NCBI RefSeq assembly: GCF_002985465.2
Contig: NZ_CP135913.1
Length of the DNA stretch: 24,000 nucleotides
Source of the DNA: Haemophilus influenzae
GTDB lineage: Bacteria > Pseudomonadota > Gammaproteobacteria > Enterobacterales > Pasteurellaceae
Reading direction: 5' to 3' (one strand)
Of this stretch, positions 3,001-9,000 are shown in pieces. The position numbers are program-made. The stretch's first letter is position 1; the number at the start of each line of letters is the position of its first letter.

Positions 3001-6000
3001 TTCAAAAGGAAAAGTTGCAGCAAATTGTTGAAATTCTTCACGATCATATTTAAAGGCAAAGCCTTTTTTCGCTTCACGTTGTGCATAAACATCTAGTAAC
3101 TCTGCCGCTACATCACGAATTTTCTCCGCTGCTTTTTGGCGTGATTTCGCCCAAGCCTCATTACCCAGTTTATGTAATGGTGCACTTTCATCAGAACCAC
3201 CAACATAACGGCTAATCAAATGTAATGAAGTCACTGGCACATAAAGTTTTGATTCATTTGCATAATTTAGTAGCAAATATTCTGCTTTAATACCGCCTGT
3301 ATCTAAGGTGACCAAACCACCATAACGTCCCACACCGTGATCAAGATGCACAACGGGCTGCCCTATTTTCAGTTCTGCAAGATTGCGTACAAGCGTGTCA
3401 GGATTAATCGTTTTACGTTTATCTCTAGAACGTTGTTGAACACGTTCGCCAAGTAAATTAGCTTCGCCAATAATCGCAACAGGAAGCGATTGTTCAATTA
3501 TAAAACCTTGTTCAAGAGAGCTGACTAACAAGCTAAATTTTTCATCTTGAGCCTGTTCCAAGGATTGAATTTGTTTTGGCTTGAGTTTTAACGCTGAAAG
3601 CAAATCAAGCAAAGTCTCTCGGCGACCTTCCGTCTCCACAGAAAACAGTATATTTCCTTTAAAATGCTCAATAAATTGGCGTAATTGCCCCAATGGTTCT
3701 TTTTGCTGGGATTGAATGGTCACTTCTGGTAAAGCGGCAACAGGTAAATTTTTCTGGCGTACCGATGACCGCACTTTTTCAGCCTTAAATGTAATACGTG
3801 GATAAGATTTCAATCGGCGATTAACTTCATCAACATTGAGCCATAATTTTTCAGGCGATAAAAGCGGACGCATCGGATCCACTTTACGTTGTTCATAACG
3901 CTGTTTGGCATCCTGATAAAAACGCTCGCCTTGCATTTGGTTGTTTTCCATATCCACAAACAGCGTTTGTTCTGGCAAATAATCAAATAAAGTAGCCATT
4001 TCAGAAAAGAAAAGTGGCTGCCAATATTCAATGCCAGAAATCAAAGTACCTTTACTGATTTGCTGATAAATATGTTCGGGATCTCGACGAATCTCCCCAA
4101 AAGTTTCACGAAATTGTGCACGGAAAAATTCAATCCCTTTGTCATCCGTTGGAAATTCGTGCGCTGGCAAAAGATTAATTGAGTTAATTTCATCAAGAGT
4201 ACGTTGCGTATCCACATCAAAAGTTCGAATGGAATCAATTTCATCATCAAAAAAATCAAGACGAAAAGGCACCGCACTTCCCATTGGGAAAAGATCCAAC
4301 AAAGCACCACGAACTGCGTACTCGCCGTGTTCTAATACTTGCTCCACAGCACGATAGCCCGCTGCTTCCAATTGTAAACGCATTTTATCGATGACCAAAC
4401 GATCGCCTTTTTTAATCAGAAGCACATTGTGTTGTAAATATTGTGGCGGGCAAAGGCGTTGCATTAATGTCGAAATCGGCAATAAGAAAATGCCTTTTTT
4501 CGCATTTTGTAAATGGAAAAGCGCACTTAAACGAGAAGAAATAATTTCTTGATGGGGAGAAAAGGTATCATAAGGCAACGTTTCCCAATCAGGAAATACG
4601 CATACATTTTGACTGCTTAATTCTGATAAAATACGTGATAAACGCACCGCACTTCGTGTATCTGGTGTGACTACTACGGTTAAATTTTGATTTTGCTCTG
4701 CAATTTCACTAATCGCCAGTGCATCAGCACCTTGTAAGACATTGCCTAAAATTTTATGATCATTAGGTGAGGTTGGAATATCAGGTTGGAAAAAAGCCGT
4801 TTTCATAAATAATGCATCAATCTTGTATAAAAATTGACGCATAGTGTACTGGAATTTACCCTATCTTTCAATAAGTTTACTGTTTAAAAAAACAGTTAAT
4901 ATTTATTTCTTTAAAGAAGATTCTTCTTTCTTCAAATTACCATTTTCATCTTCTGTTGCTGACATAGGCACGCAGCTACAATTAGGTTGATCTAACCCCC
5001 ATTCTTTAATGAAGTTGTCATATTTTTCAAGTGCGCGTTTAAACCAGCCTTTTGGTTTTGCGGTTTGTTCTGTCATAAAGTTCCTCGCGCTAAATATTGT
5101 TTAATTTCTAAACGCAAACATTCTACGCCTTTTTTCTTGTTAATGGGAAGTTGTTTTTTTGTTAAATAAGCGGAAATTAATGGAAAATTTTCTTTACCTG
5201 CTAATTTTAATAAACGCCTCATCGCAGGAACACTCGAAAATAAAGTGCGGTGAAAATTAGCGAAGTTTTTTAAGCTCAGCCAATCGAACTCATCAAGCTG
5301 CCAATCAAACTGATTTTGCTCAAAATTTATGGCGAACGGATGAAAAGATAAAGGGATATTACGCTGAAATTGTTTGTGTGCAGTATCAACTAAAGCCAAG
5401 CCTTCTTTGGAAAGACCTTTAAGGGCAATCGCTGAATAACAACCACTACTCGCTTCTTGATGTTCGCCTAAATGCACCAAAACAAAACCACACTTTTGCC
5501 AAAATTTTGCCAATTCGTCAGTGTAACCAAAACTTACCGAAAGAAAATCCACTTCTGAATTTTCCATAAATTTCATTAGATTTTGACCAATGCCCTTTTG
5601 CTGCCAATTTGGTTGCACGGCGATACGTGAAATGCGGAGTGAACGCAGTTTACAGGCTTGGGAAAGATTTTCATGGAAACATAACGCCTGCGGAACCAGA
5701 TTCCCTTTCGGACGGCGTTTGCCTTGTTGAATTTGAATAATCAACTCATCATCAGCCATATTTCCTTCTTCTAATGCCCAAATTGCACCGAGCAAATTCT
5801 GTTGATATTCGGCAAAATAAAAACGTTGATTTTCTCCATCCAGTAAACGGCGAAGATCGAGTGGCGATGTGCGGTAGTGAGCAATCGTCATTAGCCCATA
5901 AAAATCTCGAAAGAAAAATTGATGACTATATTCCCCTTGGCTGCCCTTGCTTGTGAGGGGTGCTACCGAAGGCTGAGGGGAGCTGGCTATATCTAAGTCC

Positions 6001-9000
6001 CCCTTCCGCCCTACGGGCACCTTCCCCCGCAAGCAGGGGAAGGAAAGGTTTTTAGCGTTTTCCTCAATGTTATAAGTAATATCGCTATAGTCGAAGTGCT
6101 GAAAATCATCTTCGGCATTTAGCAACAAAAGATCATCAATAAAATCTTCTAACGGATCATTTTCTTGCCAACGTAGAGGCTGTTTAAGCTCAAAATGCTG
6201 AAAAGTGCGGTGGATTTTTCGTTTAAATTTTAATTCAAAGCCACGCCCCGTTCCTTCGTAGCTATGAATTGTAGTACTGAAGACAATATGTTGAAAATAT
6301 TGAGAATATTGTTGCAATAATGGCAATGGGATCATCGCAGCTTCATCTACGAGCAACCAAGCGGATTGACTAAATTCAGATTCATGTTGTAACCGAATAG
6401 TCAGTTCATCGGGGGCGATAAATTCTATCTCTCGTTCTGAAAATTCAATAACCGAATGTACCGCACTTTTATTTGGTGCAGTGAGATAAACTGGTGCTTG
6501 AATTTGGTTAGTAAGTATCCCCAATAATGCCGATTTCCCTCTTCCCCGCTTTGCGGTTAGAAAATAAATATCCTGCTCAGCCTGTAAAATAGTCTCGATA
6601 ATTTGTTGTTGCGCTAACGTGGCATTTTTGTGATGCTCGTTAGAATAAAAAACCGAAGGAAATTCAACCGCACTTTCCTCTCTGAAAATAGGGAAATGAT
6701 AGCGTTCAATGCAATGTTTGAAATAATAAATAAAATTAGGCGTGGCGATTGCTGACTGATTTCCATTCCAACGTAAACTATCTTGATCAGGCTGCTGAGA
6801 TAAATTTTCCCAATCGGATAAGACTAAACAAAGTGTGCCACCCATTTTCAGTGTTCCAGCTGCAATAGCTAACGCTTCAAGATGAATGCCATTTCGTCCA
6901 TCAAATAAAATATGTTCAAATTCTTGTCCAAGCAAATTCGTTGCTTTCGAAAAAGCAATGCCACTTTCGCCGATAATCAAAACGTTATCAGGCACAAGTG
7001 GCAAAGTTTTACTGATTAAAATTTGAAGATGGCGAGATGGCATCGTGTTATTTTAAATAGGCAATTAATATCGCACCAATAAAACTTACGCAAGCAAGCA
7101 AAAAGAAAATAGGTTTTGGTTGCACAACCTTTTTACTGAAAAATTTCGCAGCAAACAGGATATACAAAATCAGTAATGCAAATTTAGCTATCAACCACCA
7201 TTCAATATCAAAAACAAAGAGATATAAAATGACGGCACCAGAAACAATCAACAAGGTATCTGATAAGTGAGGTAAAATTTTTAATAATTTTATCGAACGC
7301 CAATTTTTACCATTAAGCTGCATTGCACCACGAATTACTAACAATGCCAAACTTAAAAAGGCGAAAAAAATATGTAAATGAACTAACATAATCACTCCCA
7401 AAAAAGTAAGAAAAGTGCGGTCAAAATCCACCGCACTTTCTCAATCTAAATTACTTCGCAATACGTTTATATTTAATACGATGTGGCTGAGTTGCTGCAT
7501 CGCCTAAGGTTTTCTTTTTCCACTCTTCGTAGTCTGAGAAGTTACCTTCGTAGAACGTCACTTTACCTTCATCGCCGTAGTCTAAAATATGCGTTGCGAT
7601 ACGATCTAAGAACCAACGGTCATGGGAAATCACCATTGCACAGCCTGGGAATTCTAAGATCGCATTTTCTAAGGCACGCAAGGTTTCAACGTCCAAATCA
7701 TTGGTTGGTTCGTCCAATAACAGTACGTTACCTCCACGTTGTAGCAGTTTCGCTAAATGTAAACGACCACGTTCCCCACCCGATAATTCGCCCACGCGTT
7801 TTTGTTGATCTACCCCTTTGAAATTAAAACGTCCAACATAAGCACGGCTTGGAATTTCAAAGTTGCCGATAGTGAGAATGTCTTGCCCATTAGAGACTTC
7901 TTCCCATACAGTTTTTTTGTCATCCATAGCATCACGGAACTGATCCACCGAAGCAAGTACAACGGTTTCGCCCATCGTAATAGAGCCATTATCTGGCTGC
8001 TCTTGACCTGACAACATACGGAATAAGGTTGATTTACCTGCACCGTTCGCTCCGATAATCCCAACGATTGCACCTTTTGGAATACTGAATGATAAATCAT
8101 CAATCAAAGTGCGGTCGCCATAAGACTTGGTTAAGTTTTGCACTTCAATGACTTTATCGCCTAAGCGTGGACCTGGTGGAATAAAGAGTTCATTTGTTTC
8201 GTTTCGTTTTTGATATTCGCCAGAGTTCAATTCATCAAAACGAGCCATACGCGCCTTGCTTTTTGCTTGGCGACCTTTTGGATTTTGACGAACCCATTCC
8301 AACTCTTTCGCAATGGATTTTTGACGCGCATTTTCAGCGGCTTGTTCTTGCTCTAAACGTTTCTCTTTTTGCTCTAACCAAGAAGAATAGTTACCTTCCC
8401 AAGGAATACCCTCACCGCGGTCAAGCTCTAAGATCCAACCCGCTACGTTATCTAAGAAATAACGGTCGTGGGTAATTGCGACAACAGTGCCTTCGTAGTC
8501 GTGTAAGAAGCGTTCTAACCACGCCACAGATTCTGCATCTAAGTGGTTAGTTGGTTCGTCTAATAAGAGCATGTCTGGTTTTTCAAGCAATAAACGGCAA
8601 AGTGCCACACGACGACGCTCGCCCCCTGATAAATGCTCAATTTTCGCATCCCAATCTGGTAAACGTAACGCATCTGCGGCACGCTCTAATTGGTTATCTA
8701 AATTATGCCCATCATGCGCTTGAATAATGGCTTCAAGATTGGCTTGTTCTGCCGCTAATTTATCAAAATCTGCATCAGGATCCGCATAAAGCGCATACAC
8801 TTCATCTAAACGAGTAAGTGCATTTTTCACTTCAGAAACCGCTTCTTCCACTGCTTCACGCACGGTTTGTTGCGGTTCTAATTTTGGTTCTTGCGGAAGA
8901 TAACCGATTTTAATCCCAGATTGTGGACGAGCCTCCCCTTCAAACTCTTTATCTACGCCCGCCATAATGCGTAAAAGGGTCGATTTCCCCGCACCATTTA

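Follow-up and report, generated by a model that had tools for sequence, protein, structure and literature searches.

The 24,000-nt stretch of Haemophilus influenzae DNA analysed here (contig NZ_CP135913.1; hereafter the window) carries, within the tmcA gene for tRNA(Met) cytidine acetyltransferase, a short G+C-rich palindromic segment that is translated as part of the protein. This segment is very probably a non-autonomous, gene-less copy (a mini) of a palindromic cassette that in its full-length form consists of a left (L) module, a gene for a DUF559 protein, which is a Vsr-like PD-(D/E)XK nuclease, and a right (R) module. The segment is an insertion in tmcA and has copies elsewhere; some copies enclose a DUF559 gene, one is an internally deleted intermediate, and the linkage of module and DUF559 gene is conserved. 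The in-frame coding copy and the connection to DUF559 appear to be new; the kind of repeat itself is already known.

The insertion in TmcA

A sequence-only reading had picked out positions 5933-6048 as G+C-rich within an AT-rich gene, and this span indeed contains 63.8% G+C, compared with 38.2% for the remainder of tmcA and 38.8% for the whole window. The refined element covers 112 nt on the minus strand (5936-6047; 62.5% G+C), has the ends CTTT...CAAG and is as a whole a long imperfect palindrome. It occurs once in the 24 kb and is their G+C maximum, with no other 112-nt interval reaching 0.60 (mean 0.388, sd 0.059). The structural features that had been noticed were recovered as well: a GC hairpin (arms 6020-6030 and 6033-6043, 91% complementary), a TGAGGGG direct repeat (5954-5964 and 5974-5984) and imperfect terminal inverted repeats of 25 nt (5935-5959 and 6024-6048, 76% complementary). 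A nhmmer profile built from the Pasteurellaceae minis matches 6047-5936 with E = 3.4e-29, and Rfam gave nothing relevant, either at gathering scores on the window or at E <= 10 on 5850-6150. Because the energy of folding departs only mildly from what is usual (z = -1.8 as RNA and -1.6 as DNA), the significance of the segment rests on its composition, the comparison of alleles and the existence of other copies, and not on folding.

The host protein has the TmcA_N, NAT10/TmcA helicase, GNAT and tRNA-binding domains of TmcA (Pfam PF05127, the NAT10/TmcA helicase, E = 1.9e-45, plus PF13718 and PF17176) and matches PDB 2ZPA with E = 4e-110. The tmcA open reading frame (ORF) passes through the segment uninterrupted, as had been claimed, giving the peptide ...NLSFPCLRGKVPVGRKGDLDIASSPQPSVAPLTSKGSQGEYS.... 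This peptide follows the helicase domain (residues 162-309 by Pfam) and precedes the GNAT part, which begins near residue 381. An alignment of orthologues, proposed as a check, identifies the segment as an insertion. It is absent from 119 of the 120 best TmcA clusters, which are 609-615 aa long and include H. haemolyticus and some H. influenzae, and the E. coli TmcA (PDB 2ZPA) skips it, aligning to residues 32-325 and 381-615 with a linker of 16 residues. Among these 120, a 656-aa TmcA is found solely in the window's own cluster, the 430 members of which are mostly named H. influenzae. This protein is longer by 42 residues, 38 of which belong to the element (residues 333-370), and both protein and DNA alignments give a net surplus of 126 nt for the 656-aa over the 614-aa alleles.

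Two types of tmcA allele (A and B), about 92-93% identical over the gene, carry the insert. Their L modules agree at 47 of 49 positions (96%) and their R modules at 35 of 48 (73%), with six C-to-T changes in type B. The right half of the element is decaying towards the composition of its host, whereas the left half has been kept. Only two of the six reading frames of the element are stop-free, and the insert would have survived because it entered in phase 0, in a stop-free frame, and in a linker that tolerates extra residues. Some tmcA products in the databases end at this place. The Rd KW20 product (AAC22904.1, 353 aa; P0133) stops inside the element, just after the G-run, and two others (P0136 and P0142) are also truncated or frameshifted within or just before it, at G5 and A5 runs. 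Such truncations may represent real inactivation, or sequencing or assembly errors at a compression-prone stretch.

The extra peptide is most likely a tolerated linker filler. An AlphaFold2 model of TmcA, made with an alignment of eight sequences, had a mean predicted local distance difference test score (pLDDT) of 33 and was unusable, and therefore no structural statement on the insert is drawn from it. It could be argued that the extra residues were selected because they serve TmcA, for instance as a basic RNA-binding loop, since the ORF is intact throughout the large cluster, Lys, Arg and Gly are frequent in the peptide, and its L-encoded half is conserved among 13 sequences. We consider this quite improbable. 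The conservation follows the DNA module and not the peptide, as almost the same module sequence is found at non-coding loci and in other phyla, the window copy being one base off. The R-encoded half, with its 73% identity in DNA, shows many amino acid changes, and the insert is missing from many strains of H. influenzae and H. haemolyticus.

Other copies and the full-length cassette

Further copies of the segment, which the sequence-only reading had left to a database search, are present in Haemophilus genomes and beyond. The first lead was a single 45-nt match in a blastn search of plasmids, to an intergenic palindrome between nitrite reductase subunit genes on a Rhizobium plasmid. This match exposed a conserved core of the L module, GCTTGCGGGG N5-8 GCCCGNAGGGCGGA, which was used as the pattern for a scan of one genome per species. 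At least 120 stretches matched, and the core matches listed include Xanthomonadales, Rhizobiales, Hyphomonas, Reyranella, Acidobacteriota and Cardiobacterium. The rhizobial copies may be RIMEs, the intergenic mosaic elements specific to Rhizobium. Neither phages nor 5426 E. coli genomes yielded a blastn match to the segment, and a scan of viral contigs gave two matches only, both in G+C-rich contigs.

At least five L modules at four loci were found in H. influenzae M10489, namely downstream of rpoB in the rpoB-rpoC spacer (L032), in tmcA (L071), between ccmF and ccmG (L127) and, with two copies, at locus L134; copies also occur in other isolates. H. haemolyticus has two copies (locus L030) and Aggregatibacter kilianii has one between citC and citD (L039), while minis sought in metagenomes brought in an H. 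influenzae copy between dnaA and dnaN and an rpoB-rpoC copy of opposite orientation. The L module of the window is one base off the consensus of the other Haemophilus loci and Aggregatibacter (in the loop of its second hairpin, GTA versus GAA), and this consensus is identical at 45 of 45 positions to a copy from Rhodanobacter (L041). Among the sites seen, tmcA is the sole coding one, and six of the seven are co-oriented with transcription; co-orientation as a general rule is broken by the inverted rpoB-rpoC copy. In that spacer the minis of different Haemophilus isolates stand in opposite orientations at slightly different positions (L032 703-803 versus L141 1896-2013), which implies two independent events or an inversion. 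The dnaA-dnaN copy (L142 4666-4838) contains about 66 nt of unrelated, hairpin-containing sequence between the two hairpins of its L module.

The full-length form is seen in H. haemolyticus, where L030 3662-4124 consists of an L module, 17 nt, an ORF of 126 aa and an R module. The ORF belongs to DUF559 (Pfam, E = 1.5e-47; PDB 3HRL, E = 1.6e-22). HI_1162 is the name given to a homologue in one database source, and the full-length form corresponds to the HI1162 locus. L and R modules likewise enclose the 126-aa DUF559 ORF at L134 and in Rodentibacter (L138). Modules and gene are closely fitted: the L module ends 3-17 nt ahead of the DUF559 ATG with its G-rich tail positioned as a ribosome-binding site, and the R module overlaps the gene's last codons together with its stop. 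Directly downstream of the full cassette in L030, at 4154-4343, all that lies between L and R is the ORF's initial 14 nt and its final ~80 nt. This copy has the structure expected of an internally deleted intermediate between full cassette and mini, and we read it as such.

The GATATAG in the centre of the tmcA element resembles the (GGGATATA)n spacer which in the full-length element separates the L module from the DUF559 start codon. This spacer is an 8-nt tandem repeat, with about four units in H. influenzae M10489 (L134 ~6440-6470, minus strand) and about three in H. haemolyticus (L030 3706-3728). Its unit number shifts the distance between G-rich tail and ATG, and may tune or switch expression. 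In the same locus of M10489 a partial, degenerate L start (CCTTTCCCTGCTTATTAGAGG…) stands directly upstream of a complete L module (L134 ~5980-6030, minus-strand orientation) and looks like a nested or duplicated end. Rodentibacter rarus has a tandem array of two complete L-DUF559-R cassettes and two truncated copies of L plus ORF start in its FAD-oxidase / 4HBT-thioesterase / hemH locus (L138 2260-3560).

The association of module and gene extends well beyond Haemophilus, to Alphaproteobacteria and Xanthomonadales among others. L-DUF559-R or L-DUF559 was found in Rodentibacter and Actinobacillus equuli (between hisH and hisA), in Hyphomonas, Rudaea and Allorhizobium, and in four uncultured or Anaerolineae-like (Chloroflexi-like) contigs. 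At all DUF559 loci inspected outside E. coli (12 of 12) a module lies just upstream of the gene in the same orientation. The modules differ in sequence between lineages, but the architecture of first hairpin, usually a second one, and G tail is constant and the stems keep their pairing. Many DUF559 proteins in the databases have N- or C-terminal extensions that resemble translated modules. PADLOC gave only a marginal DpdF match for DUF559, and in the literature on the motif sequences, on DUF559 with repeats, on HI1162/HI1254 and on Haemophilus miniature or extragenic palindromic repeats, no account of the element or of a DUF559-repeat link was found. The parts of the tmcA copy are collected in Table 1. 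Elsewhere, the window has a tRNA gene at 16972-17044 (plus strand; Rfam RF00005, 71 bits) that is unrelated to the element, and in related contigs a DUF5363 ORF of 57 aa between tmcA and mfd overlaps the tmcA stop by 4 nt (L001 4968-5141, equivalent to about 4900-5076 of the window, minus strand).

Table 1. Parts of the repeat element in tmcA, its flanks and its host gene (window positions)
Feature	Position	Strand	Remarks
Mini (gene-less) repeat element	5936..6047	-	TmcA codons 333-370, phase 0 entry; nhmmer E = 3.4e-29
Left (L) module	5999..6047	-	P1 hairpin, P2 hairpin, G-rich tail
L module, P1 hairpin	arms 6036-6043 (CCTTCCCC) and 6020-6028 (GGGGGAAGG); loop 6029-6035	-	
L module, P2 hairpin	6008-6018	-	GCCC-GTA-GGGC
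L module, G-rich tail	5999-6007 (GGAAGGGGG)	-	mirror repeat of P1 purine arm
Centre spacer	5983..5998 (ACTTAGATATAGCCAG)	-	contains GATATAG
Right (R) module	5936..5983	-	aligns to R consensus of intergenic copies (TCCCCCCTCAGCCTTCGGCAGCTCCCCCCATAAATGGGTGGAGCCAAG)
R module, parts	C-rich tail 5974-5982; degraded P2 5962-5973; P1-like hairpin 5944-5960; terminal CAGCCAAG 5936-5943	-	
Upstream linker flank	6048..6098	-	gene nt 946-996 (...HFDYSDITYNIEENAKN); diverged homologue of the 614-aa-allele linker (FPFQPHLPYQIREVQKP); outside the repeat
Downstream linker flank	5906..5935	-	gene nt 1109-1138 (GEYSHQFFFRD); diverges from 614-aa alleles (HHIVD/HHIAE)
tmcA, tRNA(Met) cytidine acetyltransferase (host gene)	5073..7043	-	656 aa, intact ORF

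Relation to known repeats

The sequence-only reading knew of no equivalent described for Haemophilus. The element is nevertheless of a kind that has a name, since the modules are, from their sequence, variants of the BoxC/PIT/TM_ECO repeats, with formation of an intrastrand triplex of class II (purine) predicted from the mirror pair. These repeats combine an arm rich in C, a purine arm and, mirroring the latter, a second block of purines, and form an intrastrand triplex in vitro; TM_ECO has 3610 occurrences in 262 proteobacterial genomes, is described as always intergenic and has been linked to local instability (Holder et al., NAR 2015, PMC4666352). The same account cites Bergler 1992, Bachellier 1999 and Hoyne, Maher and coworkers 2000 as sources for BoxC/PIT, the last of these for elements of E. 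coli, Synechocystis and H. influenzae that could form intrastrand triplexes (PMC4666352). The copies described here may be among those of H. influenzae.

In the L module of tmcA the C arm CCTTCCCC (6036-6043) pairs with GGGGAAGG within 6020-6028, and the tail 5'-GGAAGGGGG-3' (5999-6007) mirrors the purine arm 5'-GGGGGAAGG-3' exactly. A mirror pair, GAGGGG / GGGGAG, is also present in the reverse complement of the R module. The P1 loop is nominally 7 nt and 4 nt in the predicted fold, set against a stem of about 8-9 nt and a loop of 3-6 nt for the known kind. The TM_ECO consensus CCCTCNCCC N3-6 GGGNGAGGG N3 GGGNGAGGG (PMC4666352) is not matched, and the tmcA L module is therefore a variant of that kind and not a TM_ECO copy: its arm reads CCTTCCCC and not CCCTCNCCC, and the second loop, which is 3 nt in the consensus, has 13 nt (T + GCCCGTAGGGC + G) that form P2. 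Each module has the BoxC/PIT/TM_ECO architecture of a G+C-rich hairpin P1 and a G-rich tail mirroring the P1 purine arm, with a short P2 replacing the second loop. Both kinds are frequently arranged in inverted pairs, have several dispersed copies and are widespread in Proteobacteria, and for neither is a function known. Rhizobiales elements even pair one classic BoxC-type arm (…GGGAGAGGGTTAGGGTGAGGGG) with one arm of the tmcA-repeat type. Multiple copies and inverted pairing are seen for the present repeat, with only about six loci in Haemophilus. The differences are that the tmcA copy is intragenic and translated, and that a DUF559 gene is linked to the repeat here. Near E. coli TM_ECO sites no mobility genes were found by Holder et al., whose account has no mention of a DUF559 link and lacks the word endonuclease (PMC4666352).

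The description of the segment as similar to a miniature inverted-repeat transposable element (MITE) stands as far as insertion and other copies are concerned, but not with respect to a clean insertion, as the linker flanks are diverged, nor is a target-site duplication visible. In common with MITEs derived from insertion sequences, the element is short (112 nt), has imperfect terminal inverted repeats (25-nt arms, 76% complementary, with ends CTT(G/T)…CAAG), occurs in several copies, and is polymorphic for presence and absence; there is also a longer coding relative with the same ends and an internally deleted intermediate. Unlike such MITEs, it lacks the duplication, has a low copy number in Haemophilus, and its longer relative encodes a Vsr-like nuclease of ~120 aa (DUF559) and no recognised transposase.

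Rickettsia palindromic elements (RPE) are in-frame, translated inserts of ~100-150 bp in housekeeping genes, with many intragenic copies and no associated gene. The tmcA element resembles them in behaviour, being an in-frame translated palindromic insert in a surface or linker region that leaves the protein intact. The host clades are unrelated and the sequences presumably so (there is no Rfam match here), only one site among about six Haemophilus loci is intragenic, and the full-length form has a nuclease gene. Small nucleases of the Vsr fold are also known from selfish elements: I-Bth0305I (PDB 3R3P) is a Vsr-like (EDxHD) homing endonuclease that has been grouped with Vsr and DUF559 (PMC3424549). 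Such enzymes, which are free-standing or carried by introns, share with the cassette the small PD-(D/E)XK/Vsr-fold nuclease in a selfish-looking context between host genes. They lack the flanking structured inverted modules and gene-less derivatives seen here, and the cassette is not set in an intron or intein, nor does anything point to a specific homing site for it.

Paired inverted hairpin units that form a long hairpin, mostly in intergenic positions and often within operons, are likewise typical of repetitive extragenic palindromes (REP), bacterial interspersed mosaic elements (BIME) and the REP doublets (REPIN) mobilised by the REP-associated tyrosine transposase RAYT, a Y1 transposase. 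That the element is a REP/REPIN of this kind is nevertheless highly improbable. The two inverted units of ~50 nt do give a long hairpin of ~110 nt, and in related contigs a Y1_Tnp (IS200-like) fragment of 64 aa lies between folC and truA (L010 17714-17908, beyond the left end of the window). This fragment is an AT-rich remnant with no L, R or other G+C-rich module beside it, and no intact RAYT was seen. The modules, with two hairpins and a G tail, do not have the REP architecture of a single 20-40-nt palindrome with a GTAG-type head, and the copy number is far lower, with about six loci instead of hundreds. A REP/RAYT origin was rejected on these grounds.

Origin and spread of the element

In view of the above, we suggest that minis would arise from the cassette by internal deletion, and that, in an ancestor of a large group of H. 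influenzae, one of them entered the part of tmcA coding for the flexible linker that joins the helicase-like to the GNAT part, where the encoded peptide would have no role of its own. Their spread could be helped by the DUF559 nuclease if it acts on the structures of the modules, or could occur through recombination and transformation; mobilisation by DUF559 is what we infer. A wider proposal, possible but on balance doubtful, is that the BoxC/PIT/TM_ECO repeats are the terminal modules and miniature derivatives of a small selfish cassette with DUF559 (HI1162; YcjD) as its sole gene. The nuclease would recognise the two-hairpin or triplex-prone modules and drive their copying or loss, and the tmcA insert would be a fossil of this process in a coding sequence.

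E. coli offers a comparison. In K-12 the stop codon of the DUF559 gene ycjD (L172 5408-5761) lies within an R-like CCCTCTCCCTGA, followed by a duplicate of the 3' part of ycjD and by a BoxC repeat of classic type, next to fabI. BoxC was first noticed in this region. The gene is present in 3378 of 5426 complete E. coli genomes, and in an evenly spread sample of 60 (37 with and 23 without ycjD) the number of other BoxC places was 10-23 (median 17) with the gene and 1-16 (median 2) without it (Mann-Whitney p = 2e-9). Strain IHE3034, reported with a single TM_ECO (PMC4666352), lacks ycjD and has a TetR and RND efflux cluster in that place. That BoxC copy number tracks ycjD in E. coli is suggestive only: the correlation is confounded by phylogroup, B2 strains making up most of the low counts, and some genomes without ycjD retain 11-16 copies, those of O55/O157 type having about 12. 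The hairpin upstream of E. coli ycjD is not module-like.

Several further points weigh against a DUF559-driven cassette as the source of the tmcA insert. A target-site duplication was not found at tmcA, rpoB-rpoC, ccmF-ccmG, citC-citD or the HI1162 locus, the flanks being just A+T-rich, and no clean empty/filled junction was found. The number of Haemophilus loci seen, about six, is low, though this is a lower bound, as are the counts of the genome scan, the sample of which is biased by the L-module-core pattern. DUF559 proteins have, to our knowledge, no transposase or homing activity. A member of the family, Caulobacter VsrA, has been proposed to act in mismatch repair (PMC12907096). Within tmcA, about 50 nt before and 30 nt after the element are also strongly diverged from the 614-aa alleles, and these flanks are recognisable homologues of the normal linker (Y-N-I-E-E-x-x-K versus Y-Q-I-R-E-x-x-K) and not repeat DNA. 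An imported allele patch (transformation) therefore explains the local event as well as transposition does, and recombination may have contributed as much as transposition to bringing the element into tmcA.

In its strict form, this alternative holds that a short tmcA patch already bearing the repeat was imported from another Pasteurellaceae lineage by natural transformation and homologous recombination, with the repeat passive and DUF559 uninvolved. We give it close to an even chance. Besides the diverged flanks, it would account for the same insert on two tmcA backgrounds ~7.5% apart, and for the presence of both 614-aa and 656-aa alleles among proteins named H. influenzae. It merely shifts the original insertion to another lineage, however, and the linker is variable between species in any case (P0137, P0139). 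No donor species was found, nor an element-free allele with flanks of the 656-aa type, a protein search with the linker minus the insert yielding only fragments and frameshifted ORFs.

The wider question is whether DUF559 has a part in the spread of BoxC/PIT repeats at all. They could have multiplied through replication or recombination errors at non-B DNA, or by another enzyme, while DUF559 genes use the module as 5' leader and terminator or tend to insert there, in the way that some insertion sequences target REP palindromes. The module could then be a mere 5' untranslated region and terminator of DUF559 genes, with BoxC spreading by another route. This explanation is a substantial possibility, if somewhat short of even. 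It agrees with the finding that 112 of the 120 left-module loci among the matches listed have no DUF559 gene within 8 kb, with the BoxC copies kept by some E. coli without ycjD, and with the report of local instability and no mobility genes near TM_ECO (PMC4666352). Against it, the L module abuts the DUF559 start codon and the R module overlaps the stop even where the module sequences differ, and L and R co-vary within each cassette as the ends of a transposon do. The internally deleted copy, too, indicates that minis can derive from the cassette.

The tmcA insert is a clear example, from outside Rickettsia, of how a housekeeping protein can incorporate a palindromic repeat, and it shows that BoxC-type repeats are not strictly intergenic. 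For H. influenzae itself, the element brings a frameshift-prone G-run into tmcA, and the Rd KW20 product ends inside it. The BoxC/PIT/triplex-motif repeats, which occur in hundreds of genomes of Proteobacteria and have been associated with local instability, have been an orphan family since the early 1990s, and the full-length copies provide a concrete, testable candidate for what makes and moves them. The same copies suggest a first biological context for the large DUF559 family.

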